Shown here piece by piece: positions 4,937 through 40,038 of a stretch of DNA of 64,000 nt. Location of the stretch: contig JBNKCG010000026.1 of the NCBI GenBank assembly GCA_050287605.1, forward strand, positions 76,123-140,122. The letters run 5' to 3'. Position 1 is the first letter of the stretch. Each line of letters begins with the position of its first letter. Position numbers and translations under genes: made by a program. This DNA is from Gammaproteobacteria bacterium. GTDB lineage: Bacteria > Pseudomonadota > Gammaproteobacteria > QQUJ01. The notes below the pieces were generated by a model. It searched no databases and was not told where the DNA came from. It worked only from the letters and a program-made list of their open reading frames with translations.

Positions 4937-4941
4937 GAACG

Positions 4942-6105: not shown

Positions 6106-6107
6106 GG

Positions 6108-8010: not shown

Positions 8011-8137
8011 GCCGGGAACCTTGCGAAAAGCGGGAAGCGATTGTAGCAAGTGACGCGCACGCACGCGCGGTGAATACTCAGCACGTGACTTCGGGCAGGT
8101 TCTACACTGTGGGACAACGACAGAGGGAGACCACACC

Positions 8138-8476: not shown

Positions 8477-8515
8477 GCACCCGGCGACCCACTCATACCC
8501 CACACCGCACAGCGC

Positions 8516-9532
8516 ATGGCACAGCGGCGCCTGACCCGCCGCCAGGCGCAACACGTTAAGCGCATCCAGGAACGCCGCGTGGCGCGCGCCCAAGCACGCG
8601 CGCGGGCGACAGAGCACGACACCGACAACGACCGCCTCGGCCCGGAGGAACTCGGCCGGGTACTGGCCAACTTTGGCGCGTCGCTGATGGTGGAATCGGC
8701 GAACGCGAGGGTGGTGCGCTGCACCCCGCGCGCCAACCTTGCGCTCATCGTCAGCGGCGATGAAGTGGTCATGCAGCGTAACGACGAAACCGAAGGCGTC
8801 GTCACGGCGCTGCTGCCGCGGCGCACCGAACTCGGCCGCCCCGACTTCAGCGGCCGTCTCAAACCGCTGGCCGCCAACATCGATCGACTGGTAATCGTGG
8901 CCGCGTTGCAACCCACCCTCGACACCCATCTGATCGATCGCTATCTGGCCGCCGCCGAACTGTTGGGCGCAGCGCCACTGCTGGTGATCAACAAGATCGA
9001 CCTCGCCGACACCACCCAGCTCGACGCGCTTAAGACGCAGATCGCGGTCTACACGCAGATCGGCTATCCGGTGATCTATGCCAGCACCAAGCGGGCACAC
9101 GGACTCGACGAACTGTCCGCCGCCCTTGCCGGTCACGTCAGCATCCTGGTGGGCCAATCCGGCGTCGGCAAATCGTCGCTGATCCAAGCGCTGCTCCCCG
9201 ACCAGACGATCCGCATCGGCAAGCTTTCCGAGGCATCGGGACAGGGGCGGCACACCACCACCTCCACCATGCTCTACCATCTGCCCGGCGGCGGCGACCT
9301 CATCGATTCGCCGGGAGTACGCGAATTCGGTCTCTACGAAAGGGATGCCCAGCGTGTTGCAGAGGGGTTCGTGGAGTTGCGGCCCTATCTCGGCCACTGC
9401 CGCTTCCGCGACTGCCGCCACGACGCGGAACCGGGATGCGCTCTGCGCGCAGCGGCGCAAAACGGCGCGATCGATGCGCGCCGACTGGCCAGCTACTTAG
9501 CGCTAGCCAAGGAAGTTTCCGCTAGCGATTGA
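8516..9532 (+). CDS. rsgA: Ribosome small subunit-dependent GTPase RsgA
   Basis: INKID, GQSGVGKSS, GRHTTT, IDSPGVREF, Zn site CRFRDCRHDAEPGC. Confidence 0.97.
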   Translation: MAQRRLTRRQAQHVKRIQERRVARAQARARATEHDTDNDRLGPEELGRVLANFGASLMVESANARVVRCTPRANLALIVSGDEVVMQRNDETEGVVTALLPRRTELGRPDFSGRLKPLAANIDRLVIVAALQPTLDTHLIDRYLAAAELLGAAPLLVINKIDLADTTQLDALKTQIAVYTQIGYPVIYASTKRAHGLDELSAALAGHVSILVGQSGVGKSSLIQALLPDQTIRIGKLSEASGQGRHTTTSTMLYHLPGGGDLIDSPGVREFGLYERDAQRVAEGFVELRPYLGHCRFRDCRHDAEPGCALRAAAQNGAIDARRLASYLALAKEVSASD

Positions 9533-9600
9533 CGGCGGGCGCCGACAACCGACATCTGCCGTGTCGTATTCGCTGGCTGTCGCATCGCGGGCGCACCCGT

Positions 9601-10203
9601 CTACTCCATGGAACGCCGACCACTGAAGGCGTGCGACAGGGTGCCGCCGTCGATGTACTCCAACTCGCCGCCCAACGGTACGCCGTGGGCGATGCGCGTC
9701 GCCGTCACCCCGTGATGGGCAGCCAGCTCAGCGATGAAGTGGGCGGTTGCCTCCCCCTCCACGGTGGGGTTGGTGGCGAGGATCACCTCGTGCAACGCCG
9801 CTTCGCCGAGGCGCTCCTCCAACACGCTCAGACCCAGCTCCGCGGGACCGATGCCGTCCAGCGGCGAGAGGTGACCACCCAGCACGAAATAGAGCCCGCG
9901 GTAGTCGGTCGCCTGCTCGATGGCGTAGACGTCGGCCGGCGTCTCCACCACGCACAGCAGACCCGGGTCACGGCGCTGCGAGACGCAGATGGGGCACAGC
10001 TCCGCCTCGCTGAAGGTGCGGCAGCGCGTGCAACGTCCGACGTTGACCATCGCCTCCTCCAGCGCGTGCGCCAGGGCACGCCCGCCGTTGCGGTCGCGCT
10101 CCAGCAGATGGAAGGCGATACGCTGCGCCGATTTGGGACCGACGCCGGGCAGGCAGCGCAGCGCCTGGATCAGCCCGTCGATGAGCGGCGGAAATGCGGC
10201 CAT
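9601..10203 (-). CDS. recR: Recombination protein RecR
   Basis: [18 protein letters not shown]4 Zn finger, Toprim domain ([12 protein letters not shown]), [14 protein letters not shown]. Confidence 0.98.
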
Positions 10204-10216
10204 GGCGCAGCGCGGT

Positions 10217-10543
10217 TCAGAACGGCATCTTAAAACCGGGGGGCAGATCGAACCCGGCGGTGAAGCCGCTCATCTTCTCCTGCACCGTCTTTTCCACCCG
10301 CTGCACGGCGTCGTTGACCGCCGCAGCCACCAGGTCCTCGATCATCTCGCGATCGTCGTCGGCGAACAGCGACGGGTCGATGGAGACACGGCGCAGTTCG
10401 TGACGCCCGGTCATCACCACCTTCACCAATCCGCCGCCCGCTTCGCCGTTCACCTCCATGTTGGCCAGTTCCTGCTGGGCCTTCTGCATGTTGGCCTGCA
10501 TCTGCTGAGCCTGCTTCATCAACTTACCAATCTGCCCCTTCAT
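10217..10543 (-). CDS. ybaB: YbaB/EbfC nucleoid-associated protein
   Basis: MKQAQQMQ...[10 protein letters not shown]...[11 protein letters not shown]; sits between dnaX and recR. Confidence 0.96.
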
Positions 10544-13384: not shown

Positions 13385-14797
13385 ATGAACCGAACCACGG
13401 TATCACTGGTGTTGCTGGGGGCAATGCTGTTCGCCCTCGGCCTCGCCTGGCTGTTCAACGGTCAGGGGGTGGTCCGCAACGATCACGCCCGGCACATCCA
13501 CATCCCGGATCCGCTGCTCATACCGCTGCAGGTGCGCGCCGCCTACAACGGCGAGCGTATCTTCTTCCAGTACCGCTGGCCGTCGCAGCGGCCCGGCATC
13601 CACAACGACGTCTACAAATACGAAGGCGGCAAGTGGGTGAAGTACGGTGAATCGCAGCCCGGCCCGCAGGCGCACGTATTCCTCGAGGACCGGGTGGCCA
13701 TGATGGTCGACGACGGACATGTCCCCGAATTCGGTCACTACGGAGGTTACGTCGCCATCGGCAGCGGCCTGGACACCTTCACGCAGGCGGCTGAATCGCC
13801 GCAGGTGAAGGCCCACGACTACTTGGGCAAGGTCATGGGGCAGGCTGTGGTCACCAAGTACTTACCGCAAACCCGCCAGCGTCCGGAGGACTGGACCACG
13901 GTGGTCGACGAGCAGCGCCTGACGGCGCTGCGCAAGGCCGGGTACTTCCTCGATCTCTGGCACTGGCGCGCCCACCGCTCGAACGCGCTCGGCTACTCCG
14001 ACGATCAGAACATCGCGGAGCTGCGCGGCGGCGATCCGGGCAAAAACGGCTGGTCGACCAACTGGGACAAGGAGAAGAACCAGCCCAAGTACATGTTCGA
14101 TCCGCAGCGCACCGGCCGCTTCGCCAACAGCTGGGACGATCTGAGCAGCGGGCGCGTGGGGCAGGACGACTACTACTACCTGTCGGACGAGACCAAGGTG
14201 CCATTCGATCCCAACCACGCCTGGAAGGAGGGTGACGTCTTGCCGCTGCGGGTGTTGCGACCCTACGAAGGGTCGATGGCCGACATCCGCACCGTCGGCC
14301 GCGGCCGCTGGCGGGACGGGTACTGGGAAGTCACGCTGTCGCGCCTCATGGATACCGGCGACCCGCTGCACGACAAATCGTTCGAGGAGGGGCACGTCTA
14401 CAACCTCGCGCTCGCCGTGCATCGCAACGCCACCGGGCAGCGCTGGCACTACGTCTCCCTGCCGCTGACCATCGGCCTGGGTCTCGACGGCGACTTCCGC
14501 GCCGAACGTTTCACCGGCGACCAACCGCCATGGAGCCAGAACTGGCATACGGTGAAACTGTTCTACCCCGGCCAGGTCAACTGGCCCCTGCTCACCAGCA
14601 ACCGGCATCCCGGCAAACCGATGATCGACCGCGGCATCCCGGTCCGGCACTACCACAAGGAAGAGCAGCTCGCCCGCTACGGTATCGAAGTGGAATTCCT
14701 TCCCGAGATACAGCGGCAGTGGCGCATGACCCTGGTCACCGGGGTGCTCCTATTTGCCGGCATCGGCTTCGGCCTGCTCCGTCTGCAAACTCGCTAA
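13385..14797 (+). CDS. Ethylbenzene-dehydrogenase-gamma-like (EB_dh / DOMON-like heme b) protein, membrane-anchored at both ends
   Basis: LQVRAAYNGERIFFQYRW, EDRVAMM, DLWHWRAHRS, WEVTLSRLMDTG, YNLALAVH pattern; N- and C-terminal hydrophobic helices; strong RBS AAGGAGGGG. Confidence 0.75.
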   Translation: MNRTTVSLVLLGAMLFALGLAWLFNGQGVVRNDHARHIHIPDPLLIPLQVRAAYNGERIFFQYRWPSQRPGIHNDVYKYEGGKWVKYGESQPGPQAHVFLEDRVAMMVDDGHVPEFGHYGGYVAIGSGLDTFTQAAESPQVKAHDYLGKVMGQAVVTKYLPQTRQRPEDWTTVVDEQRLTALRKAGYFLDLWHWRAHRSNALGYSDDQNIAELRGGDPGKNGWSTNWDKEKNQPKYMFDPQRTGRFANSWDDLSSGRVGQDDYYYLSDETKVPFDPNHAWKEGDVLPLRVLRPYEGSMADIRTVGRGRWRDGYWEVTLSRLMDTGDPLHDKSFEEGHVYNLALAVHRNATGQRWHYVSLPLTIGLGLDGDFRAERFTGDQPPWSQNWHTVKLFYPGQVNWPLLTSNRHPGKPMIDRGIPVRHYHKEEQLARYGIEVEFLPEIQRQWRMTLVTGVLLFAGIGFGLLRLQTR

Positions 14798-14812
14798 CCG
14801 GAGGATTACGAC

Positions 14813-15427
14813 ATGGCACCGATTCATCACATCATGGCGCACTTCCCGATCGCGCTACTGAGTCTGGCTTTTCTTCTGATCCTGCTGCGTTCCCTGAACG
14901 TCGGTGATCTGGGCCGCCGCTTGGAATCCGCAGTCCTGATGTACCTTCTCGCACTGGGCATCGCCGGCGGCATCGCGGCCCTTATCACCGGTTTGCTCAT
15001 CTGGCCGCTGGATGCCACGCTGTCCTCGACTATGGGGCGCAACAAACTGCTGATGGCGACCTGGACGCTGTCCGTCTGGTCGCTCATCCTGCTACTTCGG
15101 TGGCGTGTAGGCGAGGCGATCTGGGCGGGGCAAAGCCGCTTCCTGCTACTCGGTTTAGGCGTGTTCGGCGCCATTCTCTTGGCCACAACCGGCACCCTGG
15201 GCGGCCACCTGCTGGGCTCGCCATCCCGCTTCTCGGGACTGCTGCACCAGTTCGGTTGGAGCGTCTACCAAACCTACTACGTGCCCACCTGGGTGCTGTG
15301 GATCATGATCGCAGCAAGCGGATCCGGGGTCGTCGCCGGGATGCTGGCCGGCGCAAACCGTGGTGTAGCGGTCCCAACTGCTGCGCGGAGCACGCTCGTG
15401 ACGCCCGAGGAACCCGCCGCGACGTAA
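14813..15427 (+). CDS. DUF2231-like membrane protein
   Basis: N-terminal HHIMAHFPIALL and TGTLGGHLL motifs; several TM helices; RBS GGAGGA. Confidence 0.65.
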   Translation: MAPIHHIMAHFPIALLSLAFLLILLRSLNVGDLGRRLESAVLMYLLALGIAGGIAALITGLLIWPLDATLSSTMGRNKLLMATWTLSVWSLILLLRWRVGEAIWAGQSRFLLLGLGVFGAILLATTGTLGGHLLGSPSRFSGLLHQFGWSVYQTYYVPTWVLWIMIAASGSGVVAGMLAGANRGVAVPTAARSTLVTPEEPAAT

Positions 15428-21794: not shown

Positions 21795-22142
21795 GGGACA
21801 TGCGCTTTCTTGATCGGCCTGGAATCGTGCCTCCGGCACCGCCCTGGACGGAAACGAAACGCCCTACCTCCCTGGCAGGTCGATGCGCACGCGGCCTGGC
21901 CGGCGCGGCGCCCAGGAATGAGTATAGAAGCTATCTCAGCATCCCTGCCTGCCGACCCGACGCTCCAATCCCTTGCATGCGTCGACGTCGGGCTCGACAC
22001 CGAGCAGGCCCCTGCAGATATTGACGACTTCGATCCCATGCGCCAGTGTTAGAACCAAGCGAAGAGATCGAGGCCCGGTTTCATCACAGTCCGTCGTGAT
22101 GAGAACACTGTGCGGATCAGCAGAGCCCCGGAGGAAAATACT

Positions 22143-22505
22143 GTGACGACAAAGCACGTGTGGTGGACGCTGACAGCGGCCATCGTTGCACTCTACGCCA
22201 GCACCCCGATGGCCGCACCACCGATGCCGGAGGTTGCCCGAAAAGCGGCCTGCACCTTGTGCCACAAGGTGGACAAGAAACTGATCGGCCCCGCATTCGC
22301 TTGGATTTCCGACAAGTACAAAAACGATCGCGCAGCGGGTAAAACCGCCATCATCAACCAGATCATCAACGGCGGCACCGGCAAGTGGACCCGCTACACC
22401 GGCGGCGTTCTCATGCCCTCTTACGGCGAGACCACGACCCCGGCACAGCGGAACGAGCTGGCGGACTTCATTCTCGGTCTCGATCCGGTCACTCCACCGG
22501 AGTAA
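22143..22505 (+). CDS. Monoheme class I cytochrome c (c551/c552-like)
   Basis: GTG start after GGAGGA; signal peptide; CTLCH, IGPAF, distal Met (LMPSY). Confidence 0.9.
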   Translation: MTTKHVWWTLTAAIVALYASTPMAAPPMPEVARKAACTLCHKVDKKLIGPAFAWISDKYKNDRAAGKTAIINQIINGGTGKWTRYTGGVLMPSYGETTTPAQRNELADFILGLDPVTPPE

Positions 22506-22600
22506 CGACCCATCACCCATGGGTGGGCAGCCCGCGCAAGAAAACGGGGCCAGCCGTGATCAAATTCGTGCCCCTTGAACCAACGCATCGACACAAGCGG

Positions 22601-22615
22601 TGGCGCAGAAATTGC
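22601..22615 (+). promoter_or_regulatory. Sigma-54 (-24/-12) promoter upstream of the octaheme cytochrome gene
   Basis: TGGCGC-AGAAA-TTGC matches TGGCAC-N5-TTGC with exact GG/GC spacing. Confidence 0.7.
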
Positions 22616-22786
22616 CATTTATCAGAATTACAGGTAATAATGCGCGCACAAAAACCAAGGGTGGCATAACAGGCGGAAACGGGGAGAGACAACGAAAGTC
22701 TCTCTGCTTTGTTCCGTTTCGGTTCATCTCCCTAGCGCTAGCTCCATGGAGCCAGCGTCGCGCGGAGATGACGGGAGTGCCGCCTG

Positions 22787-24445
22787 ATGTCCCCGATTTT
22801 CGCCCGCAACGCCTGGCGCCGGTTGGTCTTGTTGACCGGGCTTGCCTTAGTCGCCCCGCCCTCTTACGCCGCCGTTTCCGGCACGCCGGAACACGGGCCG
22901 CCGGCACACTCCTCGACCGCCAAACCCAGGAGCAACTCCACCGCCGACCATTCCCGGTTCGAGGAGTTGCAAGGCCCGTTCGCCAGCGGTCCCGAGGTCA
23001 CCAAAGCGTGTCTCTCCTGCCATACCGAGGCCGGCAAGCAGGTGATGAAGGATATCCACTGGACCTGGGAGTACACCCACCCCAAAACCGGCCAGAAGCT
23101 CGGTAAAAAACACTTGGTCAACACCTTCTGCACCAACGCGCGCGGCAACGAGGGCATGTGCGCGCAATGCCACGCGGGATACGGCTGGAAGGACGAAAGC
23201 TACGACTTCAGCCAGCAGGAGAATATCGACTGCGTGGTCTGCCACGATCGCACCGGCAGCTATTACAAAACGCCTACCACCAAGGGCAACGAGGCCTGCG
23301 CGGTAATGTTCGAAGGCCTGAAACCTATCGATCTGGCGCAGGTTGCCCAGCATGTGGGCGTCCCCGACCGTCAGGACTGCGGCGCCTGCCACTTCTTCGG
23401 CGGCGGCGGTGACGGCGTCAAACACGGCGATCTCGACTCGTCGCTGATCCACCCCGGCAAGCAACTCGACGTGCACATGAGCGAATCCGGCGCCGACTTT
23501 TTATGCACCGAGTGCCATCGCACCGTCTCCCACGAGATCGCCGGCAGTCGCTACGACATGCTGGCCCGTGACGAAACAGGCACCGGCAAGCCCGGCGAGC
23601 GCCGCCACGCTGCCAGCTGCGAATCTTGCCACGGCAACGTGCCACACCCGGGCGACGAGCTGACCGGCATCAAGCTCAACGATCACGTGGCGAAGGTGGC
23701 CTGCGAAACCTGCCACATCCCGACGTTCGCGCGCGGCGGGGTCGCCACCAAGGTCGATTGGGACTGGCGCACCGCAGGCCGTACGCGCGACGGAGCCGGC
23801 TTCTCGGAAGAGGGCTACGTGCAAGGCAACGGCGAGCATCGCCACACCTATCGATCCATCAAGGGCAGCTTCAAGTGGGATGAAAACGTGGTGCCGTACT
23901 ACGCCTGGTTCGACGGCGTGATGCACTACACCACCATCGACACCCGCTTCGATCCAGCCCAGGCGCCCATCGAGGTCAATCGCGTCAGCGGTTCGGCGGA
24001 CGACGCCAACGCACGCATCTGGCCCTTCAAGCGCATGCATACCATCCAGCCCTACGACAAGGGCAACAACACCCTGGTCTACATGCACTTGTGGGGCGAC
24101 GACAGCGACGCCTACTGGGGAAACTACGACTTCAACCGCGCCATCCAGCACGCCATGGCCGAGTTCAATCTGCCCTACAGCGGCGAGTACGGATTCATCG
24201 ACACCTACTCCTACTGGCCCATCAACCACATGGTGGCGCCCAAAGAGGACGCGTTGGGTTGCTCGGCGTGTCACGCCGCCGACAGCCGTCTGGCCGGTAT
24301 CAGCGGGATCTACCTGCCTGGACGCGACAGTCACAATCTACTCGACAAACTGGGCCTGCTAATGGTGTCCGGATCGCTGTTCGGCGTTTTCGGACACGCC
24401 TTTTTCCGATTCTGTTGTCGCAATAACAAAGGGGGGGATGCGTAA
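22787..24445 (+). CDS. otr: Octaheme c-type cytochrome, tetrathionate reductase (Otr) family
   Basis: Eight CxxCH motifs (CLSCH, CAQCH, CVVCH, CGACH, CTECH, CESCH, CETCH, CSACH); GKKHLVNTFC segment; HGDLDSSL; signal peptide; C-terminal TM helix. Confidence 0.9.
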   Translation: MSPIFARNAWRRLVLLTGLALVAPPSYAAVSGTPEHGPPAHSSTAKPRSNSTADHSRFEELQGPFASGPEVTKACLSCHTEAGKQVMKDIHWTWEYTHPKTGQKLGKKHLVNTFCTNARGNEGMCAQCHAGYGWKDESYDFSQQENIDCVVCHDRTGSYYKTPTTKGNEACAVMFEGLKPIDLAQVAQHVGVPDRQDCGACHFFGGGGDGVKHGDLDSSLIHPGKQLDVHMSESGADFLCTECHRTVSHEIAGSRYDMLARDETGTGKPGERRHAASCESCHGNVPHPGDELTGIKLNDHVAKVACETCHIPTFARGGVATKVDWDWRTAGRTRDGAGFSEEGYVQGNGEHRHTYRSIKGSFKWDENVVPYYAWFDGVMHYTTIDTRFDPAQAPIEVNRVSGSADDANARIWPFKRMHTIQPYDKGNNTLVYMHLWGDDSDAYWGNYDFNRAIQHAMAEFNLPYSGEYGFIDTYSYWPINHMVAPKEDALGCSACHAADSRLAGISGIYLPGRDSHNLLDKLGLLMVSGSLFGVFGHAFFRFCCRNNKGGDA

Positions 24446-25095
24446 TGGCGATCCGTACCGTGATGGTTTACAAGCGTTTCGAGCGCATCTGGCACTGGTG
24501 CCAGATGGCGCTGATCATGACACTGCTGTTCAGCGGTTTCGCGGTGCGCGGCATCCACTCGCTGCTGGACTTCCGCACCGCGGTGGTCGTCCACACAGTA
24601 GCCGCGATCACCCTGATCGTCATCTGGCTGTTCGCCACCTTCTGGCTGTTCACCACCGGCGACTGGCGCCACTATCTGCCCAAGAGAGAGGGATTGATCG
24701 CCGTGGCGCGTCACTACGCATGGGGAATCTTCCGCGGCGAAGAACACCCCTACCGCAAGCTCTTCTGGCGCAAACACAATCCGTTGCAGTCGTTGACCTA
24801 CATGCTGGTGAAAGTGGTGCTGTTTCCCGCCATCTGGGTCACCGGCATCCCCTACCTACTCTACGGGCTATGGCACGAAACCACCGGCCGCGGCTGGATC
24901 GAGCCCATCGCTTTCGTCCACGTGGGCGCCGCCTACGCCATCCTCGCCTTCGTCATCGTGCACGTCTACCTGCTCACCACCGGGCACTCGTTCGTCGATC
25001 ACGTCAAACCCATGGTGACCGGTTACGACGAAGTGGATCTTACCGAAGCGGAAGAGGCCTACCTGACGGAGACACGCATCGTGCCGATGAAATAG
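24445..25095 (+). CDS. Membrane di-heme cytochrome b (PhsC / Ni-hydrogenase cytochrome b-like)
   Basis: FERIWHW, VVVHTV, KHNPLQSLTY, AFVHV, VIVHVYL: four candidate heme His residues; TAATG overlap with the otr stop. Confidence 0.88.
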   Translation: MAIRTVMVYKRFERIWHWCQMALIMTLLFSGFAVRGIHSLLDFRTAVVVHTVAAITLIVIWLFATFWLFTTGDWRHYLPKREGLIAVARHYAWGIFRGEEHPYRKLFWRKHNPLQSLTYMLVKVVLFPAIWVTGIPYLLYGLWHETTGRGWIEPIAFVHVGAAYAILAFVIVHVYLLTTGHSFVDHVKPMVTGYDEVDLTEAEEAYLTETRIVPMK

Positions 25096-25257
25096 CGACT
25101 CCGGCACGGGCAACCTGGCGGCACACACTGGCGTTTGGCTGCCTTCGACTCGAGCCATGCGGCAGAAATTACTTGTACGCCCATAAAAAGTGTCGATCGC
25201 GAAACCGGTGCGGTTCGATTTAACCTAGTAAACCGACGACTCAGGGGGGGTCCAACC

Positions 25258-26715
25258 ATGGCACGTATCGTCATCCTCGGCGCGGGGATTTCCGGGCACA
25301 CCGTCGCCCGCTACTTGGGCAAGTGGATCGGGAAGCAGCACCAGGTCATTGTGGTCTCGCCCAAACCCACCTGGAACTGGATTCCCTCCAACATCTGGGT
25401 CGGCGTCGGGGAGATGACCGAGCAGCAGGTCACCTTCGCGCTCGAACCCGTCTACAAGAAGATCAACGTCGCCTTCCACCAGGCCAAGGCGGTCTCCATT
25501 CATCCCGACGGCGACGCCGAACACGCCAAACCCTACGTCACGGTCGAGTACACCGGCCAGGGCAAGGAGGGTCAGACCGCCGCCGTGGAATACGACTACC
25601 TGGTCAACGCCACCGGTCCCAAACTCAATTTCGGCGCCACGCCGGGGCTGGGACCGGAGAACGGCTATTCGATGTCGGTGTGCACACCCGCGCACGCGCT
25701 GGAGGCCAACGCCCAGTTGCAGAAGAACATCGAGGCCATGAAGGCCGGCGAGCAGCGCACCTTCGTCGTCGGAACCGGCCACGGGATGTGCACCTGCCAG
25801 GGCGCGGCCTTCGAGTACATCTACAACATCGACCACGCCATCCGCGCCGCGGGGGTACGCGACCGCGCGCGCCTCATCTGGATCAGCAACGAATACGAGC
25901 TGGGCGACTTCGGCATGGGCGGCGTCCACATCACCCGCGGCGGCTACATCACCAACGGCAAGGTATTCGCCGAATCGCTGATGGTGGAGCGCGGCGTGGA
26001 ATGGATCACCCGCGCCCATGTCAGCAAGGTCGAGCCGGGCAAGATCCACTACGAACAGCTCGACGGCACCCAGCACGAACTGGAGTTCGATTTCTCCATG
26101 CTCATCCCGCCCTTTTCGGGGGTCGGCATCAAGGCCTTCGACAACGCCGGGGGCGACATCACCGATCAGCTGTTCGCGCCCAACGGGTTCATGAAGGTCG
26201 ACGCCGACTACAACCCCAAGCCCTACGAGCAGTGGAGCAAAGCGGACTGGCCCAAGACCTACCAGACGCCCAAGTACAAAAACATCTTTGCCGTCGGAAT
26301 CGCCTTCGCGCCGCCGCATCCCATCAGCAAGGTGATGAAGAGCCCCGGCGGAACGCAGATCAGCCCCACCCCCCCGCGCACCGGCATGCCCTCGGCCACC
26401 ATCGGCAAGGCGGTGGCAAGCAGCATCCGCGACATGCTGGAAGGCAAGGCCGAACCGACCCACACCGCCTCCATGGCCGAGATGGGCGCCGCCTGCGTGG
26501 CCTCTACCGGCATGGACTTCTTCAAAGGTACCGCCGCGACCATGACGGTGTTCCCGGTGGTCCCCGACTACGAGACCTACCCCGAGTACGGCCGCGACAT
26601 GAACCTCACCTTTGGCGAGATCGGGCTGGCCGGGCACTGGATGAAGTTCATCCTGCACCACGTCTTCATCTACCAGGCGAAGCTGCGCCCAGGCTGGTCC
26701 GTCCTTCCGGACTGA
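25258..26715 (+). CDS. sqr: Sulfide:quinone oxidoreductase
   Basis: GAGISG FAD motif; SVCTPAHA, CTCQGAAFEY and GAACVAS cysteine positions equivalent to the SQR Cys triad; VGIAFAPP; PRTGMPS. Confidence 0.85.
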   Translation: MARIVILGAGISGHTVARYLGKWIGKQHQVIVVSPKPTWNWIPSNIWVGVGEMTEQQVTFALEPVYKKINVAFHQAKAVSIHPDGDAEHAKPYVTVEYTGQGKEGQTAAVEYDYLVNATGPKLNFGATPGLGPENGYSMSVCTPAHALEANAQLQKNIEAMKAGEQRTFVVGTGHGMCTCQGAAFEYIYNIDHAIRAAGVRDRARLIWISNEYELGDFGMGGVHITRGGYITNGKVFAESLMVERGVEWITRAHVSKVEPGKIHYEQLDGTQHELEFDFSMLIPPFSGVGIKAFDNAGGDITDQLFAPNGFMKVDADYNPKPYEQWSKADWPKTYQTPKYKNIFAVGIAFAPPHPISKVMKSPGGTQISPTPPRTGMPSATIGKAVASSIRDMLEGKAEPTHTASMAEMGAACVASTGMDFFKGTAATMTVFPVVPDYETYPEYGRDMNLTFGEIGLAGHWMKFILHHVFIYQAKLRPGWSVLPD

Positions 26716-26752
26716 TCGATCGCGCACCCGCACCGCATTCGAGGAGGCACCC

Positions 26753-26923
26753 ATGGCAGACGCGACCAACAAAGAACCCTACCAACAGGCCTATTACCCG
26801 CCGGTGCCCACCGGCTTCACACGCCACATGCGCCAATCGGTGGTCTGGCAGTTCATCCGCTTTTGGATCATCAACTACAAAATCTTCAAGCTGTTGACCA
26901 AATCCCACCGGCAAAAGGACTGA
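26753..26923 (+). CDS. 56-aa small protein cotranscribed with sqr (MADATNKEPYQQAYYPPVPTGFTRHMRQSVVWQFIRFWIINYKIFKLLTKSHRQKD)
   Basis: Manual translation; GAGGAGG RBS just upstream; fills the gap between the sqr stop and the terminator; below the ORF-track size cutoff. Confidence 0.8.
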   Translation: MADATNKEPYQQAYYPPVPTGFTRHMRQSVVWQFIRFWIINYKIFKLLTKSHRQKD

Positions 26924-26937
26924 TCCAGGTCGAACGC

Positions 26938-26964
26938 AAACGGGGCCGCAACGGCCCCGTTTTT
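26938..26964 (+). terminator. Rho-independent terminator (probably bidirectional) between the sqr unit and putR
   Basis: AAA-CGGGGCCG-CAA-CGGCCCCG-TTTTT. Confidence 0.88.
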
Positions 26965-27001
26965 GTTGGGTGGTGCAACGCGAGCGTCCCCGCCGCCAGC
27001 C

Positions 27002-27478
27002 TCACACCTGCGCCACACCCCGGTCTCTGACGCTCTCCATGGAAACGTAGGTGGAGGTGGCGGCCACATGGGGCAAGCAGGAGATGCCCTCGCTCAACAC
27101 CCGGCGGTACTCGCGGATATCCTGGGTGCGCACCTTTACCAGATAGTCGAACCCGCCCGCGATCATGTGGCACTCCTCCACTTCGGGGATCTCGCGCACC
27201 GCCTTGTTGAACGCCTTGAGCGCCTGCTCGCGGGTGTCGGACAGGCGCACCTCGATGAAGGCCACGTGCTCCAGACCGAGCCGGCTGGCCGACAGCTCCA
27301 CACGATACCCCGTGATCACTCCCTCCGCTTCCAGACGCCGCACCCGGGCCGCGACGGGTGTCTTGGAGAGACCGACCTTCTGGCCCAGTTCAACCATCGG
27401 AATGCGCGCGTTACGCAGCAGTTCGTTGAGGATGGAACGGTCGATCCGGTCCAGCTTGGGGGGGATGGCAGCACTCAT
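27002..27478 (-). CDS. putR: Lrp/AsnC-family regulator PutR
   Basis: LDRIDRSILNELLRNARI, VGLSKTPVAARVRRLE, ECHMIAGGFDYLVKV; divergent from putA. Confidence 0.85.
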   Translation of the reverse strand: MSAAIPPKLDRIDRSILNELLRNARIPMVELGQKVGLSKTPVAARVRRLEAEGVITGYRVELSASRLGLEHVAFIEVRLSDTREQALKAFNKAVREIPEVEECHMIAGGFDYLVKVRTQDIREYRRVLSEGISCLPHVAATSTYVSMESVRDRGVAQV

Positions 27479-33385: not shown

Positions 33386-35440
33386 ATGTCACCCCGCATC
33401 GCCCGCAGTGCCTGCCCCCACGACTGCCCCTCCACCTGCGCCCTGGAGGTGGAACTGGTCGACGAGCGCACCATCGGCCGCATCCACGGTGCGCGCGCCA
33501 ACGGCTACACCGCCGGCGTGATCTGCGCCAAAGTGGCGCGCTACGCCGAACGCGTCCACCACCCCGAACGGCTGCGCACGCCGCTGCGGCGGGTCGGCCC
33601 CAAGGGCAGCGGTGAATTCGAGCCGCTGTCGTGGAACGATGCCATGGACAGCGTGGCCGAGGCGTTCCTCCAGGCCGAGCAACGCTACGGCAGCGAGTCG
33701 ATCTGGCCCTACTACTACGCCGGCACCATGGGCCTGGTGCAGCGCGACGGCATCAACCGCCTGCGCCACGCCAAGCGCTACGCCGGTCAGCTCAAGACCA
33801 TCTGCTCCACCATCGCCCGCGCCGGCTGGACCGCGGGTGCTGGCGCCGTCCGCGGTCTCGACCCGCGCGAGATGGCCGACGCCGAGCTGATCCTCATCTG
33901 GGGCACCAATGCCGTTGCCACCCAAGTCAACGTCATGACCCACGTCGCCCGTGCGCGCAAAAACAGCGGCGCCCAGGTGATCGTGATCGATCCCTACTGC
34001 AACGCCACCGCCCAGGCGGCCGACCGCCACGTCGCGCTGCGCCCCGGCACCGACGGTGCCCTGGCCTGCGCCATGATGCAGGTACTGTTCGAGGAAGGTT
34101 ATGCCGACCGCGACTACCTGGCCCGCTACAGCGACGACGCGGCACGACTGGAGGCCCATCTCGCCACCCGCACCCCGGAGTGGGCCAGTACCGTCACCGG
34201 GCTGCCCGCCACGGAGATTCGCGAACTCGCCCGCATCTACGGACGCGCCAAGCACAGCTTCATCCGACTGGGCTACGGCTTCACCCGTTCGCGCAACGGC
34301 GCAGTCAACCTGCATGCAGTGAGCTGTCTGCCGGTCGTCACCGGTGCCTGGCAATACCGCGGCGGCGGCGCACTGTTCGGCAACGGTGCGCTCTACCACT
34401 GGGACACCACCCTCATCGAAGGCAAGGACGTCGCCGACCCCGACGTCCGCCAGCTCGACATGACCCGCATCGGCGCGGTACTCGGCGGCGATCAACGCGA
34501 CTTGGGCAACGGCCCGCCCGTCACCGCCATGCTGATCCAGAACACCAACCCGGCCGCCGTTGCCCCCGACCAGAACCGGGTCATCCAGGGGCTGGCGCGC
34601 AACGACCTGTTCGTCTGCGTCCACGAGCAGTTCATGACCGACACCGCGCGGTTCGCTGACATCGTGCTGCCCGCCACCACTTTTCTGGAGCATGACGATC
34701 TCTACCAGGGGGGCGGCCATACCTACCTGCAAGTGGGTTTGCGCGCCATCGAGCCGCTGGCCGAAGCGCGTTCCAACCACGAGGTGGTGTGCGAGCTGGC
34801 GCTGCGCGTCGGGGCCGAACACCCCGGCTTCCATATGAGCGCGCGCGAGTTGATCGATGCCACCCTCGCCGCCTCGGGTTGGCCGGCCATCGACGAGCTG
34901 GGCGAGTACCCTTGGCACGACTGCGCAGCGCCGTTCGAGGAGGCGCACTTCCTCAACGGCTTCGCGCATCCCGACGGGCGCTTCCGCTTCGCCCCCGACT
35001 GGCCGGCACTGGGCACCCAGGCCGAGGGAATGCCGGAGCTTCCGGATCACTGGGAGGTCACCGATGCGGGCGACACCGAACACCGTTTCCGTCTGGTCAC
35101 TGCGCCGGCGCGCAACTTCCTCAACACCAGCTTCACCGAAACACCCAGCGCCCAGCGGCACGAAGGCCGCCCCGAGGTGATGATCCACCCCGACGACGCG
35201 GCGACGCTGGGGATCGTCGATGGCACCTTGACGCGCATCGGCAACCACCGGGGCGAGATCCGCGTCCATGCGCGCCTCTTTGACGGGCTGCAGCGCGGCG
35301 TGCTGGTCGTCGAGAGCGTGTGGCCCAACGGCGCTTTTGCCGACGGGCGCGGCATCAACACCCTGACCAGCGACGACCCGGCAGCCCCCGACGGCGGCGG
35401 CGTGTTTCACGACACGGCGGTCTGGATCAGGCCCAAATGA
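33386..35440 (+). CDS. Cytoplasmic molybdopterin (bis-PGD) oxidoreductase of unknown substrate
   Basis: CPHDCPSTC...ICAK Fe-S motif, WGTNAV, IDPY, DIVLPATTFLE, C-terminal MPT-binding domain (VMIHPDDA); no TAT signal. Confidence 0.9.
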   Translation: MSPRIARSACPHDCPSTCALEVELVDERTIGRIHGARANGYTAGVICAKVARYAERVHHPERLRTPLRRVGPKGSGEFEPLSWNDAMDSVAEAFLQAEQRYGSESIWPYYYAGTMGLVQRDGINRLRHAKRYAGQLKTICSTIARAGWTAGAGAVRGLDPREMADAELILIWGTNAVATQVNVMTHVARARKNSGAQVIVIDPYCNATAQAADRHVALRPGTDGALACAMMQVLFEEGYADRDYLARYSDDAARLEAHLATRTPEWASTVTGLPATEIRELARIYGRAKHSFIRLGYGFTRSRNGAVNLHAVSCLPVVTGAWQYRGGGALFGNGALYHWDTTLIEGKDVADPDVRQLDMTRIGAVLGGDQRDLGNGPPVTAMLIQNTNPAAVAPDQNRVIQGLARNDLFVCVHEQFMTDTARFADIVLPATTFLEHDDLYQGGGHTYLQVGLRAIEPLAEARSNHEVVCELALRVGAEHPGFHMSARELIDATLAASGWPAIDELGEYPWHDCAAPFEEAHFLNGFAHPDGRFRFAPDWPALGTQAEGMPELPDHWEVTDAGDTEHRFRLVTAPARNFLNTSFTETPSAQRHEGRPEVMIHPDDAATLGIVDGTLTRIGNHRGEIRVHARLFDGLQRGVLVVESVWPNGAFADGRGINTLTSDDPAAPDGGGVFHDTAVWIRPK

Positions 35441-35523
35441 GAGCGTGATCGCGCGCCCGCGCCCCGACCCGAGACGCAGGCTACCCGCAGCAAAACCGCC
35501 CACCCGGTGTAATAATCAACCCT

Positions 35524-37203
35524 ATGGCCGAACACGACGAACCCCCACGACGGCGCCGGGCGACCGCCCGGCCACCAACCCAGGAAGCCACCCGCTTCGT
35601 CGCCGAGCTGCTCGGTGACCGTCCGCGGCGCGCCGACCTGCTGATCGAACACCTCCATCGCCTGCAGGATCAGGTCGGACATCTGACCGAGGATCACCTG
35701 CGCGCGCTGGCAAGTGAGCTCAAACTGGCGCCCGCGGAGATCTACGAGGTGGCGAGTTTCTACCACCACTTCACCCTGGTCCACGACGGCGACGCGGCGC
35801 CGCCGCGCCTTATCGTGCGCATCTGCGATTCGCTGAGCTGCACCCTGGCCGGTGCCGAGGCGCTCATCGCCCAGGCCACCGCCTACCTGCCCGCCGATGT
35901 GCGCCTGGAGCGCGTCCCTTGCGTGGGCCGCTGCCAGCATGCGCCGGTGGCGGTAGTGGGCACCAATCCGCTGCACCATGCCACGCCCGAGCTGCTGCAG
36001 GAGGCGCTGCATCACCGCGAGACCGAACCCGAGATCCCCGACTACGCCGATCTGCGCATCTACAGCACCGGCGGCGGCTACAAGACCTGGCAGCGCTGCC
36101 TGGAGGGCGAGCTGACGGTGGAAGGCGTCATCGACGCCCTGGAACAAGCAGGCCTGCGCGGCCTGGGCGGCGCCGGCTTCCCCGCCGCGCGCAAATGGCG
36201 GCTGGTGCGCGAGCACCCCGCACCGCGCACCCTGGTGGTCAACATCGACGAGGGCGAACCCGGAACCTTCAAGGACCGCCACTTCCTCGAATCCGACCCG
36301 CACCGTTTCCTCGAAGGGGCGCTGATCGCCGCCTGGGCGGTGGAAGCCGACGCCATCTACCTCTACCTGCGCGACGAGTACGCCACCGCGCGGCAGATTC
36401 TCACCAAGGAGTTGGAGTCGCTGCGCGAAACCTTCGACGACGAACTGCCCGCCATTCACCTGCGCCGCGGCGCCGGCGCTTACATCTGCGGCGAAGAGTC
36501 GGCGCTCATCGAGTCGCTGGAGGGCAAGCGCGGCCTGCCGCGCCAGCGCCCGCCCTACATCGCACAGCAGGGTCTGTTCGGCCACCCGACCCTGGAGCAC
36601 AACCTGGAGACCCTGCACTGGGTGCGCGACATCGTGGAGGGCAACCACGCCGCGCTGTGCGACGATGCCGGCCGCAGCCTGCGCACCTACTCGGTGAGCG
36701 GGCGGGTGGCGCAGCCCGGCGTCTACCGCGCTCCCGCCGGGATCAGCGTGCGGCAACTGATCGACGACTACGCCGGCGGCATGCTGCCCGGCCACACGCT
36801 CTACGCCTACCTGCCGGGCGGCGCCTCGGGCGGCATCCTGCCCGCCGGGCTGGCCGACCTGGCGCTGGATTTCGGCACCCTGGAGGAGTACGGCTGCTTC
36901 ATCGGCTCCGCCGCCGTCGTCGTGCTGTCGCAGGCGGATCGCGCCGTGGATGCCGCGCGCAACGCCATGCGTTTCTTCGCCCACGAATCCTGCGGCCAGT
37001 GCACCCCGTGCCGGGTAGGCACCGAAAAGGCGGTGCATTTGATGGAGGCCGCCGAGTGGGACGTGCCGCTGCTGGAGGAGCTGGCGCAGGCCATGCGCGA
37101 CGCCAGCATCTGCGGCCTGGGCCAGGCGGCACCCAATCCCCTGAGCTGCGTATTGCGCTATTTCTCCCACGAACTCAAACCGGGGTACGGCCATGCCGAC
37201 TGA
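35524..37203 (+). CDS. NAD-linked formate dehydrogenase beta subunit (NuoE+NuoF-like fusion)
   Basis: EVASFYHHF, CDSLSC, PCVGRC; GLRGLGGAGFP, NIDEGEPGTFKDR, YICGEESAL, ESCGQCTPCR, SICGLG. Confidence 0.9.
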   Translation: MAEHDEPPRRRRATARPPTQEATRFVAELLGDRPRRADLLIEHLHRLQDQVGHLTEDHLRALASELKLAPAEIYEVASFYHHFTLVHDGDAAPPRLIVRICDSLSCTLAGAEALIAQATAYLPADVRLERVPCVGRCQHAPVAVVGTNPLHHATPELLQEALHHRETEPEIPDYADLRIYSTGGGYKTWQRCLEGELTVEGVIDALEQAGLRGLGGAGFPAARKWRLVREHPAPRTLVVNIDEGEPGTFKDRHFLESDPHRFLEGALIAAWAVEADAIYLYLRDEYATARQILTKELESLRETFDDELPAIHLRRGAGAYICGEESALIESLEGKRGLPRQRPPYIAQQGLFGHPTLEHNLETLHWVRDIVEGNHAALCDDAGRSLRTYSVSGRVAQPGVYRAPAGISVRQLIDDYAGGMLPGHTLYAYLPGGASGGILPAGLADLALDFGTLEEYGCFIGSAAVVVLSQADRAVDAARNAMRFFAHESCGQCTPCRVGTEKAVHLMEAAEWDVPLLEELAQAMRDASICGLGQAAPNPLSCVLRYFSHELKPGYGHAD

Positions 37204-37222
37204 CCCGGAATCGCCTTTCACC

Positions 37223-37276
37223 GTAGGAGCGGCCGCCGGCCGCGAAGGACTTATCGCGAGCAGCGCTCGCTCCTAC
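37223..37276. repeat. GTAG-type REP doublet
   Basis: GTAGGAGCGGCCGCCGGCCGCGA...TCGCGAGCAGCGCTCGCTCCTAC: inverted GTAGGAGCG/CGCTCCTAC ends with internal palindromes. Confidence 0.7.
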
Positions 37277-37293
37277 AGCGGGTTTATTTCACG

Positions 37294-40038
37294 ATGAGTA
37301 TTGAATTCACCCTCGACGGCCAGCGCGTCACCGCGCAGGCCGGCGAAACCCTTCTCCAGGTCGCCCAGCGCCTGGGCACCGCCATTCCCCACCTCTGCTA
37401 CCGCGAGGGTCTGCGCGCCGACGGCAACTGCCGCGCCTGCATGGTGGAGATCGAGGGCGAGCGGGTGCTGGCCCCCTCCTGCCGCCGCCAGCCCGCCCCC
37501 GGCATGGTGGTGCACAGCGCCAACGAGCGCGCGCGCCGCGCCCAGCGCACCGTGGTGGAGCTGCTGCTCAGCGACCTGCCGCCCGAGCGGCCCGAAAGCT
37601 GGGGCGAGGTGGGCTACTGGGCGCACCAGCTCGATCTTGAAACCGGCCGATTCCCGCCGCGCGAACAGCCGGCGGCCGACGTTTCGCACCCGGCCATCGA
37701 CGTCAATCTCGATGCCTGCATCCAGTGCACGCGCTGCCTGCGCGCCTGCCGCGAAGTGCAGGTCAACGACGTCATCGGCTTCGCCCGCCGCGGCGCCCAC
37801 ACCCGCGTGGTCTTCGACATGGAAGACCCCATGGGCCACAGCTCCTGCGTCGGCTGCGGCGAGTGCGTGCAGGCCTGTCCCACCGGTGCGCTGCGCCCGG
37901 CCACGCTACGCGACGCCGTACCCGCGGCCCGAGCGGTGGATTCGGTCTGCCCCTACTGCGGCGTCGGCTGCCAGCTCACCTTTCACGTCGCCGACGAGCG
38001 CATCGTCGCCATGGAGGGGCGCGACGGCCCCTCCAACCGCGGGGGACGGCTGTGCATCAAGGGCCGCTTCGGCCAGGACTACGTACGCCATCCGCAGCGC
38101 CTCACCCAGCCGCTGATCCGCCGTACCGACGCACCCAAGAACCCGCGCCTGGCGGTGGACCCCGCCGATCCCTCCGCCGTGTTTCGCGAGGCCACCTGGG
38201 AGGAGGCGCTGGCGGTGGCGGCGCAAGGTTTCCTGCGCATCCGTTCCGACCACGGTCCCGGGGCGCTGGCCGGTTTCGGCTCGGCCAAAGGCAGCAACGA
38301 AGAGGCCTATCTGTTCCAGAAGCTGGTGCGCACCGGCTTCGGCACCAACAACGTCGATCACTGCACGCGACTGTGCCACGCCTCTTCCGTAGCAGCGCTG
38401 CTGGAGGGGCTGGGCTCGGGTGCGGTCTCCAACCCCGTGGCCGACGTGCAATACGCCGACGTGATCGTGGTGATCGGCGCCAACCCCACCGTCAACCACC
38501 CGGTGGCGGCCACCTTCATCAAGAACGCCGTCGAGCGCGGCGCCACGCTGATCGTGATGGACCCGCGCGAGACGGAGCTGGCGCGCCACGCCGAACACTT
38601 CCTGCAATTCCACCCCGACACCGACGTGGCGCTGCTCAACGCCCTGCTCCACACCATCGTCGAAGAGGAGCTGTTCGACACCGAATTCATCGCCCGGCGC
38701 ACCCACGGATTCGACGAGCTGCGTGCCCACCTCGCCCCCTACTCGCCGGAGGCGATGGCGCCCATCTGCGGCATCCCCGCCGAGACGCTGCGCACCGTTG
38801 CGCGCCGTTACGCCACGTCCAAGGGCTCGATGATCCTGTGGGGCATGGGCATCAGCCAGCACGTGCACGGCACCGACAACGCCCGCTGCCTGATCGCCCT
38901 GGCGCTGATCACCGGGCAGATCGGCCGGCGCGGCACCGGGTTGCATCCGCTGCGCGGCCAGAACAACGTTCAGGGCGCCTCCGACGCCGGCCTCATCCCC
39001 ATGGTCTTCCCCGATTATCAGCGGGTGGACGATGCGCAGGCGCGCGAGCACTTCGAGGCCTTGTGGGGCACCCCGCTCGATCCCAACCCCGGGCTTACGG
39101 TGGTGGAGATCCTCAACGCGGCACGCGACAAAACCATCCGCGGCATGTACGTGATGGGGGAGAACCCGGCCATGTCCGACCCCGATGCCGCCCACGCCCG
39201 CGAGGCCCTGGCCAGTCTCGAACACTTGGTGGTGCAGGACATCTTTCTCACCGAAACCGCCTACCTCGCCGACGTCGTGCTGCCCGCCTCGGCCTTCGCC
39301 GAGAAGAGCGGCACCTTCACCAACACCGACCGCCGCGTACAGTTGGGACGCCCCGCCCTGGCCCCGCCCGGCGCGGCGCGCCAGGACTTGTGGATCATCC
39401 AGGAACTGGCCCGACGGCTGGATCTGAAATGGGACTACGCCGACGCCGAGGCGGTGTTCGCCGAGCTGCGTCAGGCCATGCCCAGCATCGCTGGCATCAC
39501 CTGGCAACGGTTGGAGGCGCAATCGTCGGTGACCTACCCCTGCCGCCAGGAAGGCGATCCCGGCGACGAGGTGATCTTCATCGACGCCTTCCCCACCGCC
39601 GACGGGCGCGGCCGCTTGGTGCCCGCCGCGCTGTGCGGCGACGAAGAGCGACCCGACGACGCCTATCCCAACGTGCTGATCACCGGGCGCATCCTGGAGC
39701 ACTGGCACACCGGCTCCATGACCCGGCGCGCGGCGGTGCTCGACGCCGTGCAGCCGCGCCCCGAGGTGAGCGTCCATCCCGACGATCTGGCCGCACTGCA
39801 GAGCGGCGACGGCGAGCTGATTACGGTGGAGTCGCGGCGCGGCGCGATCACCGCCCACGCGCGCAGCGACCGCGGCGTCCCGCGCGGAACGGTATTCATG
39901 CCGTTCTGCTACTACGAGGCGGCGGCCAACGTGTTGACCAGCCCGGCACTGGACCCGGTGGCCAAGATCCCGGAGTTCAAATACTCCGCCGTGCGGCTGC
40001 GGCGCGGCGAACAGCCTCCGGCCGGCGCCGGGTACTGA
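37294..40038 (+). CDS. fdhF: Formate dehydrogenase alpha subunit (Cys-type)
   Basis: N-terminal 2Fe-2S and 4Fe-4S motifs (CIQCTRC, CVGCGECVQACP), CPYCGVGC, DHCTRLCHASS, PLRGQNNVQG, HWHTGSMT, PEFKYSAV. Confidence 0.95.
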   Translation: MSIEFTLDGQRVTAQAGETLLQVAQRLGTAIPHLCYREGLRADGNCRACMVEIEGERVLAPSCRRQPAPGMVVHSANERARRAQRTVVELLLSDLPPERPESWGEVGYWAHQLDLETGRFPPREQPAADVSHPAIDVNLDACIQCTRCLRACREVQVNDVIGFARRGAHTRVVFDMEDPMGHSSCVGCGECVQACPTGALRPATLRDAVPAARAVDSVCPYCGVGCQLTFHVADERIVAMEGRDGPSNRGGRLCIKGRFGQDYVRHPQRLTQPLIRRTDAPKNPRLAVDPADPSAVFREATWEEALAVAAQGFLRIRSDHGPGALAGFGSAKGSNEEAYLFQKLVRTGFGTNNVDHCTRLCHASSVAALLEGLGSGAVSNPVADVQYADVIVVIGANPTVNHPVAATFIKNAVERGATLIVMDPRETELARHAEHFLQFHPDTDVALLNALLHTIVEEELFDTEFIARRTHGFDELRAHLAPYSPEAMAPICGIPAETLRTVARRYATSKGSMILWGMGISQHVHGTDNARCLIALALITGQIGRRGTGLHPLRGQNNVQGASDAGLIPMVFPDYQRVDDAQAREHFEALWGTPLDPNPGLTVVEILNAARDKTIRGMYVMGENPAMSDPDAAHAREALASLEHLVVQDIFLTETAYLADVVLPASAFAEKSGTFTNTDRRVQLGRPALAPPGAARQDLWIIQELARRLDLKWDYADAEAVFAELRQAMPSIAGITWQRLEAQSSVTYPCRQEGDPGDEVIFIDAFPTADGRGRLVPAALCGDEERPDDAYPNVLITGRILEHWHTGSMTRRAAVLDAVQPRPEVSVHPDDLAALQSGDGELITVESRRGAITAHARSDRGVPRGTVFMPFCYYEAAANVLTSPALDPVAKIPEFKYSAVRLRRGEQPPAGAGY

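Follow-up and report, generated by a model that had tools for sequence, protein, structure and literature searches.

A cluster of five genes lies on the forward strand of a 64,000-nt stretch of DNA from a Gammaproteobacteria bacterium (assembly GCA_050287605.1, contig JBNKCG010000026.1, positions 76,123 to 140,122), which we call the window and analysed at its full length. The five open reading frames (ORFs), spanning 22143-26923, encode a monoheme cytochrome c, an octaheme c-type cytochrome of the Otr family, a di-haem cytochrome b (cytb), a sulfide:quinone oxidoreductase (SQR), and a protein of 56 amino acids (aa), and they end at an intrinsic terminator (Table 1). A preliminary description, made from the letters and a list of ORFs alone, read them as a self-contained loop carrying electrons from sulfide to the acceptor of Otr. 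Its account of the locus holds: the five genes are co-oriented where it placed them, and its identification of the two c-type cytochromes, the cytochrome b, and the SQR agrees with family models and with matches to solved structures. The self-contained unit is another matter. The cluster probably consists of three separately conserved modules, namely otr with cytb, sqr with the small ORF, and the cytochrome c gene, which are adjacent only in this lineage, rather than of a dedicated five-gene machine.

Gene order and boundaries

The otr stop codon TAA overlaps the cytb start codon in the sequence TAATG, as the proposed translational coupling of the two genes had stated. The spacer between the cytochrome c gene and otr has 281 bp, and the one between cytb and sqr has exactly the 162 bp reported before (25096-25257). 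The terminator has a GC-rich stem of 11 bp, a loop of 3 nt, and then a T-run; the 56 nt around it (26920-26975) fold at -27.8 kcal/mol (z = -3.75), a stability that no shuffle out of 200 reached, so the single strong terminator at the end of the cluster is real. A consensus terminator scan missed this hairpin because the stem takes up the first three T. Co-orientation of five genes has a chance of about 1 in 16 and is hence unremarkable alone. What rises above chance is the conservation of the two pairs, otr-cytb and sqr with the small ORF, not the five-gene set.

Table 1. Features of the cluster in window coordinates.
Feature	Position	Strand	Basis
Class I monoheme cytochrome c, c-551/c-552 (c8) type	22143-22505	+	PF00034
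Promoter-like site and hairpin, cytochrome c-otr spacer	22612-22705	+	consensus scan; function putative
Otr-family octaheme c-type cytochrome, 552 aa	22787-24445	+	TIGR04315
Predicted C-terminal transmembrane helix of Otr	24344-24421	+	hydropathy of homologue tails
PF01292 di-haem cytochrome b, 216 aa	24445-25095	+	PF01292
Conserved non-coding block, cytb-sqr spacer (candidate sqr promoter/operator)	25160-25228	+	alignment to L082
Sulfide:quinone oxidoreductase (SQR), 485 aa	25258-26715	+	fold relatives and cysteines
56-aa protein ORF	26753-26923	+	conservation downstream of SQR
Intrinsic terminator hairpin followed by T-run	26938-26962	+	folding against shuffles

An octaheme cytochrome with a predicted membrane tail

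Otr scores well above the cutoff of its family model (TIGR04315, 609.8 bits against 375, model positions 1-440 covered) and matches the Shewanella Otr structure 1SP3 with E 1.3e-107, being alignable over residues 59-502. It has a signal peptide and eight CXXCH motifs, whose cysteines and histidines are all invariant in the alignment, and eight motifs are likewise present in 79 of 83 homologues. The motif GGGGDxVKHGD is common to the window protein and 1SP3. The distal-lysine motif GGGGDGVKHGDLD aligns with GGGGDAVKHGDLD of 1SP3, the segment holding Lys153 (numbered by counting along the 1SP3 chain); the lysine lies outside any CXXCK motif, and in the window protein it is K212, invariant in 21 homologues. 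Lys153 is reported to be the unusual ligand of the catalytic haem (Mowat et al. 2004).

Past the end of the 1SP3 alignment (query residue 502), the window protein has a C-terminal extension with a helix at about aa 520-545, then basic residues. A hydrophobic helix at this place (19-residue window, Kyte-Doolittle mean > 1.6) is found in 76 of 83 homologues, and its His537 and Arg541, near the cytoplasmic end, are invariant. From this hydrophobic tail, with its invariant His and Arg and its basic residues, it follows as a predicted topology that Otr is a periplasmic enzyme anchored by a C-terminal membrane helix. His537 and Arg541 come in addition to the four His with which the cytochrome b can bind its two haems; for their role, we considered a quinone site, a lipid contact, or a further haem contact. 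In one locus (L046, about 8001-10274), otr and cytb form a single ORF with the Otr membrane helix truncated, which may reflect a frameshift of the assembly or else a natural fusion.

The membrane tail sets this protein apart from the best-known member of the family. Otr of Shewanella oneidensis (1SP3) shares with it the family model, the eight CXXCH haems, and the lysine motif, but it is soluble and reportedly receives electrons from CymA via STC (PMC4484225), whereas the window protein has a membrane helix and a translationally coupled cytochrome b. Two other systems resemble the window pair, as far as the descriptions in the papers go, orthology being presumed. BOGUAY_2386 of the orange Guaymas Beggiatoaceae has predicted N- and C-terminal helices and a downstream gene labelled as the cytochrome b subunit of a thiosulfate reductase, and it reduces tetrathionate and nitrite in vitro (PMC6449678). 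For TDIS_1882 of Thermosulfurimonas dismutans, a membrane link via the cytochrome b TDIS_1883 has been proposed (PMC4911364). Neither is reported to adjoin an SQR or a c-551-type cytochrome. Tetrathionate, nitrite, or hydroxylamine reductase activity of the family has been demonstrated only for Shewanella Otr and BOGUAY_2386 (PMC4484225, PMC6449678), and the physiological substrate is disputed (PMC12949373).

A conserved two-gene module of otr and cytb

The cytochrome b matches PF01292 over its full length (positions 1-179 of 179, E 5.6e-21, 75.5 bits against a gathering threshold of 30.1). Of 80 homologues, 79-80 keep each of H17, H50, H159, and H173, which are placed as in the alignment with FdnI, so that four transmembrane His are available which could ligate two haems b. 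A search of solved structures with the single sequence gave chance matches only; with a profile built from 14 homologues, FdnI was matched weakly over the whole length (1KQF_C, E 0.19). A second conserved element, the loop motif H101-P-Y-x-K...K110-x-N112 (residues 101-112, window 24745-24780), is unchanged in 80 homologues and sits away from the helices with the haem ligands, which makes it a candidate for a quinone site or for docking. We considered whether this protein is PhsC and rejected it: the match to the PhsC model NF011582 is partial and, at 96.5 bits, falls short of the cutoff of 204, this cytochrome b is partnered by Otr, and there is no PhsA or PhsB in the window neighbourhood. 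The score against the hydrogenase cytochrome b equivalog is 40.5, below its cutoff of 121.5. The protein appears to work like PhsC without being PhsC itself. Like PhsC, FdnI, and HyaC, it has about 215 aa and four predicted helices, with His in the first and second transmembrane helices and two in the fourth, 14 residues apart; the partner of those proteins is an Fe-S subunit, whereas here it is a multihaem cytochrome c. In FdnGHI, in hydrogenases with their cytochrome b, and in PhsABC, the PF01292 cytochrome b carries a periplasmic subunit that has a C-terminal helix, and FdnH and the hydrogenase small subunit have such a helix, as does the partner of the window cytochrome b.

The association of the two genes is conserved. 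We searched one genome per species, found more than 560 with Otr relatives, and kept the best 80 loci for the survey. The cytb gene lies directly 3' of otr in 79 of 83 loci and follows it in about 77 of the 80 genomes, the exceptions being loci cut by a contig end; in 59 of 80 loci the stop codon of otr overlaps the start of cytb or directly adjoins it. De novo clustering of the ORFs within 6 kb at 83 loci recovered as conserved only Otr (83/83) and cytochrome b (79/83); no other family was found in more than 13 of the 83, and most further clusters were shadow ORFs inside otr or cytb. At two loci whose Otr is 73-76% identical to ours (L167, 2689-6970; L169, 1428-5684), otr-cytb stands alone between lipA and lipB, a placement that fits a two-gene cassette able to insert as such. 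The existence of an otr-cytb membrane pair has already been noted in the literature (PMC6449678, PMC4911364).

These observations suggest how the first module would work. The signal peptide would export Otr and the C-terminal helix would hold it at the outer face of the inner membrane, where its docking partner would be the di-haem cytochrome b of PhsC/FdnI type, a four-helix protein in electron exchange with quinol. Electrons would most likely run from quinol to the haems b, then through the eight haems c, to a periplasmic acceptor bound at the lysine-ligated haem, which may be tetrathionate, nitrite, hydroxylamine, or possibly sulfite. The two genes are best annotated as one module. With more than 560 genome matches, a membrane-bound, quinone-linked Otr would be widespread in sulfur- and iron-oxidising Proteobacteria, unlike the soluble Shewanella paradigm, and a natively membrane-coupled enzyme with quinol as donor would be a cleaner system for the question of the substrate.

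The sulfide:quinone oxidoreductase

The flavoprotein has the GxGxxG motif of the Rossmann fold that binds flavin adenine dinucleotide (FAD), in the form GAGISG at residues 8-13. Its closest solved structures are the enzymes of Aquifex aeolicus and Acidithiobacillus ferrooxidans (3HYV, E 3.3e-39; 3SZ0, E 2.9e-31). Cys142, Cys180, and Cys413 align with Cys124, Cys156, and Cys347 of the A. aeolicus enzyme, and also with the cysteines of that of A. ferrooxidans, and 18 homologues keep all three without exception. Among Chromatiaceae, proteins of 485 aa are 75-86% identical to it, several of them named 'sulfide:quinone oxidoreductase' or 'sulfide-quinone reductase'. Judged by these residues and matches, the protein is a genuine SQR.

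It is most probably of type IV (SqrD), an assignment reached by elimination and not by alignment to a typed reference: the protein is 75-86% identical to proteins of Chromatiaceae, SqrD (type IV) and SqrF (type VI) are the only SQRs reported from that family (PMC10892978, PMC3368242), and its size and cysteines do not fit the SqrF of Thiocapsa roseopersicina (TrSqrF). Type VI was rejected on the last ground. SqrF, known from T. roseopersicina and as Alvin_1195 of Allochromatium vinosum, is like ours an SQR of purple sulfur bacteria, but TrSqrF is an enzyme of about 44 kDa with FAD at Cys121, the redox-active Cys332, and a single short C-terminal helix (PMC9666304), against the 485 aa and Cys142, Cys180, and Cys413 of the window protein. 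SqrD (Alvin_2145 of A. vinosum, SqrD of Chlorobaculum tepidum) occurs in the Chromatiaceae that store intracellular sulfur. The window protein has the canonical three-cysteine pattern, and its relatives in Allochromatium, Thiococcus, Thioflavicoccus, and Marichromatium belong to genera named as carriers of sqrD (PMC3368242).

Two observations at other loci concern the surroundings of sqr. About 60-110 nt upstream of the gene, loci L086-L089 have a box like TTGATCCACATCTTTG or TTGATCTGCGTCTTTG (half-FNR/CRP-like), followed by TAGCGT, which is not in the window. At L093, a second and different SQR-like gene (7693-8793, 33% identical over 428 aa) comes straight after the small ORF.

A small protein conserved next to the SQR

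The 56-aa protein is the newest and least expected item of the cluster. Its ORF has the sequence GAGGAGG 6 nt upstream. In a metagenome scan that kept 80 sqr loci (L083-L162), with SQRs 63-81% identical to that of the window, the small ORF lies directly 3' of SQR in all 74 loci with at least 200 nt downstream, starting at a median of 29 nt past the SQR stop. It also adjoins a 484-485-aa SQR in two complete or large genomes, those of Caldichromatium japonicum and a Granulosicoccus, where the flanks are unrelated; on L163 and L164 the ORF occupies 6001-6156 and 6001-6165. The third codon position differs most (0.62 differences per site), the first less (0.38), and the second least (0.26), the pattern of a coding sequence. 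There is no match to a Pfam or NCBIfam family, and the names in the source records are all 'hypothetical protein', save one 'transposase-like protein'.

The proteins have about 52-56 aa and the consensus N(K/R)EPYQQAYYPPxPT...MRTxxxWQxxRFxxINxKMxxLxxKSHH. In the window, a Pro/Tyr-rich N-terminus (NKEPYQQAYYPPVPT) precedes a long amphipathic helix (WQxxRFxxINxK...KSH), and AlphaFold2 predicts an extended N-terminus and a helix at residues 21-54 with a confidence score (pLDDT) of 82-91. This helix fits a membrane-surface or protein-binding role better than a transmembrane one, because it is moderately hydrophobic (mean Kyte-Doolittle < 1). A membrane-surface partner or anchor of SqrD is thus a plausible role for the protein. 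A stronger version would make it an obligatory small subunit of the type IV SQR, whose surface helix binds the flavoprotein for anchoring, for shaping the quinone site, or for handing on polysulfide; this we put forward tentatively, with somewhat more doubt than confidence. Small partners of SQRs have a precedent: Alvin_1196/1197, downstream of Alvin_1195, were suggested to attach SqrF to the membrane (PMC10892978). In the SqrD literature cited here, we found no mention of a conserved 56-aa downstream partner.

The second module consists of sqrD and the small ORF: sulfide would be oxidised to polysulfide or S0 and quinone reduced, the small protein probably acting as surface partner or anchor. 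The small protein represents an unannotated family that accompanies an enzyme central to sulfide oxidation in purple sulfur bacteria and related organisms. Should it prove to be a subunit, the 'single-subunit' SqrD would be a two-subunit enzyme, and work on recombinant SqrD without the 56-aa protein may miss part of it.

The cytochrome c gene and its spacer

The third module is the cytochrome c, presumably a soluble carrier, linked to otr only in the closest clade. The gene has a GTG start with GGAGG 7 nt upstream, and its product has an N-terminal signal peptide and the haem site CTLCH. PF00034 is above its cutoff (E 8e-07), the best solved structures are c-551/c-552 cytochromes (Protein Data Bank, E 3.5e-08), and in the alignment to the c-551/c-552 chimera 5XEC, CTLCH is paired with CVACH and the LMPSY loop with the PMPP loop. 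With a single N-terminal CXXCH, a distal Met in a Pro-rich loop, and this likeness in structure, it has the features of class I cytochromes of the c-551/c-552 (c8) type.

The spacer towards otr contains the promoter-like site TTGCCA-N18-AATAAT (22612-22641, consensus scan) and, about 40 nt past it, a hairpin with a T-rich tail (22683-22705), which could be a leader or attenuator, or the terminator of the cytochrome c gene. Among the related loci, the cytochrome c gene adjoins otr in L001 and L166 as in the window, and nowhere else. In L001 (about 7780-7900), a TTGCCA...GGTAA block and a hairpin recur at the same place with different stem sequences. Upstream of its cytochrome c gene, L001 (GCA_050302035.1) also carries a tandem array of five or six paralogous ORFs (4072-7193), each of 125-131 aa and outside any Pfam family.

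Are the five genes one unit?

If the cluster were a dedicated unit, as the preliminary description had it, the quinol made by SQR would be reoxidised via the cytochrome b to Otr, which would reduce tetrathionate or nitrite, and the five genes would be one operon in this lineage. The quinone pool is indeed used by both enzymes, the genes are co-oriented, and one strong terminator closes the set. The neighbourhoods of the two pairs in other genomes argue otherwise. First, tblastn with the five window proteins found no window-type SQR, small ORF, or cytochrome c next to Otr in any of the 80 genomes (the best 80 of more than 560); two weak SQR matches (24-30% identity) were to other flavoprotein genes nearby. 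Second, within 6 kb of SQR, Otr and the two cytochromes b and c are absent from all 80 metagenome sqr loci. Third, the Chromatiaceae Thiorhodococcus drewsii, Thiohalocapsa marina, Imhoffiella purpurea, Thioalkalicoccus limnaeus, and Thiocystis violacea have both modules, on different contigs or at different loci. Fourth, the linkage is absent from the next closest relatives (Otr 73-80% identical): L001 and L166 (77-80%) have cytc-otr-cytb and then feoB, and L167-L169 (73-76%) have otr-cytb alone, without the cytochrome c. In these surveys the linkage of otr and cytb with sqr is not conserved, one of the three outcomes that the preliminary description had named as speaking against its unit.

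The order otr-cytb-sqr-small recurs in a single relative, L082, a 5.5-kb contig whose Otr is 81% identical to ours and on which asnC and putA follow as in the window. Since these two downstream genes are common to both, L082 appears to reflect one shared recent arrangement rather than a second origin of the order. The flanks of the window cluster (pirin, isochorismatase, MFS, AsnC, and PutA) were sought around Otr and SQR elsewhere, and only L082 has them. Among the near relatives, L082 alone shows the order, the others having otr-cytb with or without a preceding cytochrome c gene; the juxtaposition with sqr therefore appears to be recent and narrow, and that of otr with the cytochrome c gene only slightly older.

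The spacers point in the same direction. The one between cytb and sqr has 162 nt in the window and 416 nt in L082, and it is unalignable except for a 69-nt block (25160-25228) that is 86% identical and holds the inverted repeat CGAACC-N6-GGTTCG. That this block was kept inside an otherwise unalignable spacer suggests a control region belonging to sqr; the block was not found in the other 77 sqr upstream regions. Reading the gap by eye for a sigma-54 promoter revealed no convincing TGGCAC-N5-TTGC, and the matches to Rfam families within 21800-27200 (E up to 1) were all at chance level. The conserved blocks in both long spacers favour, in our inference, three separately controlled transcription units.

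Several points weigh against the modular reading. The surveys kept the 80 best of more than 560 matches, and a linkage of otr and sqr in distant lineages is possible. The order does recur in L082, even if only there. The consensus scan found no terminator-like site between cytb and sqr, and because no terminator separates them, co-transcription by read-through is possible in this lineage. The complex of Otr with the cytochrome b, the direction of its electrons, its substrate, and the extent of the transcripts rest on inference rather than on experiment, whereas the gene identities, the catalytic residues, and the two conserved pairings are shown by the data. Finally, Shewanella otr deletion mutants have no tetrathionate phenotype (PMC12949373). 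On balance, we still regard three modules as the likely account and a single operon serving a sulfide-driven loop as unlikely, given the empty surveys, the shared flanks of L082, and the conserved blocks in the spacers. A recent fusion of the otr-cytb and sqrD modules into one sulfide-induced transcript in this lineage would be a second novelty beside the small protein, and it is the less likely one.

Electron flow and its direction

All three modules would connect to the periplasm and the quinone pool. The redox potentials are about -270 mV for S0/HS-, +100 mV for ubiquinone, +200 mV for tetrathionate/thiosulfate, and +340 mV for nitrite/ammonium, and because of these values a path from sulfide through SQR, quinol, and the cytochrome b to Otr is thermodynamically possible. 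Since SqrD would feed the electrons of sulfide into the quinone pool, sulfide-driven turnover of Otr is possible, and it would be no more specific than turnover with any other source of quinol. The electrons cross a common pool anyway, so adjacency of the genes gives no specificity, and the gene order here is no basis for reading a respiratory loop specific to sulfide. What stands of the proposed loop is therefore the identity of its genes and a path that thermodynamics allows; the dedicated unit is not supported by conservation.

It has also to be considered that Otr may run in the opposite direction, oxidising thiosulfate to tetrathionate, or oxidising hydroxylamine, and passing electrons to the c-551-type cytochrome and on to a reaction centre or oxidase, and/or through the cytochrome b to quinone, as FdnGHI and the hydrogenases do with their cytochrome b. 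PF01292 proteins serve both quinone-reducing enzymes (FdnI, HyaC) and quinol-oxidising ones (PhsC), and the family match places the window protein among them; moreover, the hosts are mostly sulfur oxidisers, and in the window, L001, and L166 a c-551-type cytochrome adjoins otr. However, that cytochrome is missing beside otr in all 80 surveyed genomes and in L167-L169, and the passage of electrons from thiosulfate (about +200 mV) to ubiquinone (about +100 mV) would be uphill. The characterised members are reductases in vitro, and their thiosulfate oxidase activity is very low (PMC6449678, PMC12949373). We consider oxidative operation quite unlikely, and a reductive Otr fed by the quinone pool is the direction that we retain.

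The weakest alternative makes Otr and the cytochrome b a quinol-dependent sulfite reductase like MccA/SirA, with SqrD reoxidising the sulfide in a cryptic route from sulfite through sulfide to S0. It is highly improbable: the sulfite/sulfide couple (about -116 mV) could not be reduced by ubiquinol without energy input, and no feature of the window sequence compared here separates a sulfite site from a tetrathionate or nitrite site. The idea stems from a 2026 study of Shewanella sp. ANA-3, which found no role of OTR in tetrathionate respiration and extra sulfite in a ttr otr mutant, and from the superposition of the eight Otr haems on those of MccA (PMC12949373), but the suggestion is indirect and concerns the soluble Shewanella enzyme.

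The surrounding window

We also considered whether the cluster is part of a sulfur-metabolism island, and rejected this, as the wider window holds ordinary chromosomal genes (dnaX, tctABC, putA, formate dehydrogenase-like genes, and a photolyase gene). The best named relatives are from Chromatiaceae and unclassified Gammaproteobacteria. Upstream of the cluster, at 13385-15427, a protein with an EB_dh domain (ethylbenzene dehydrogenase gamma-like, haem b) precedes a DUF2231 membrane protein, and the two may form a periplasmic haem/membrane pair. Downstream, at 33386-40038, a molybdopterin oxidoreductase, a Nuo51-type flavoprotein, and an Fe-S/molybdopterin subunit together resemble an NAD-linked formate dehydrogenase.

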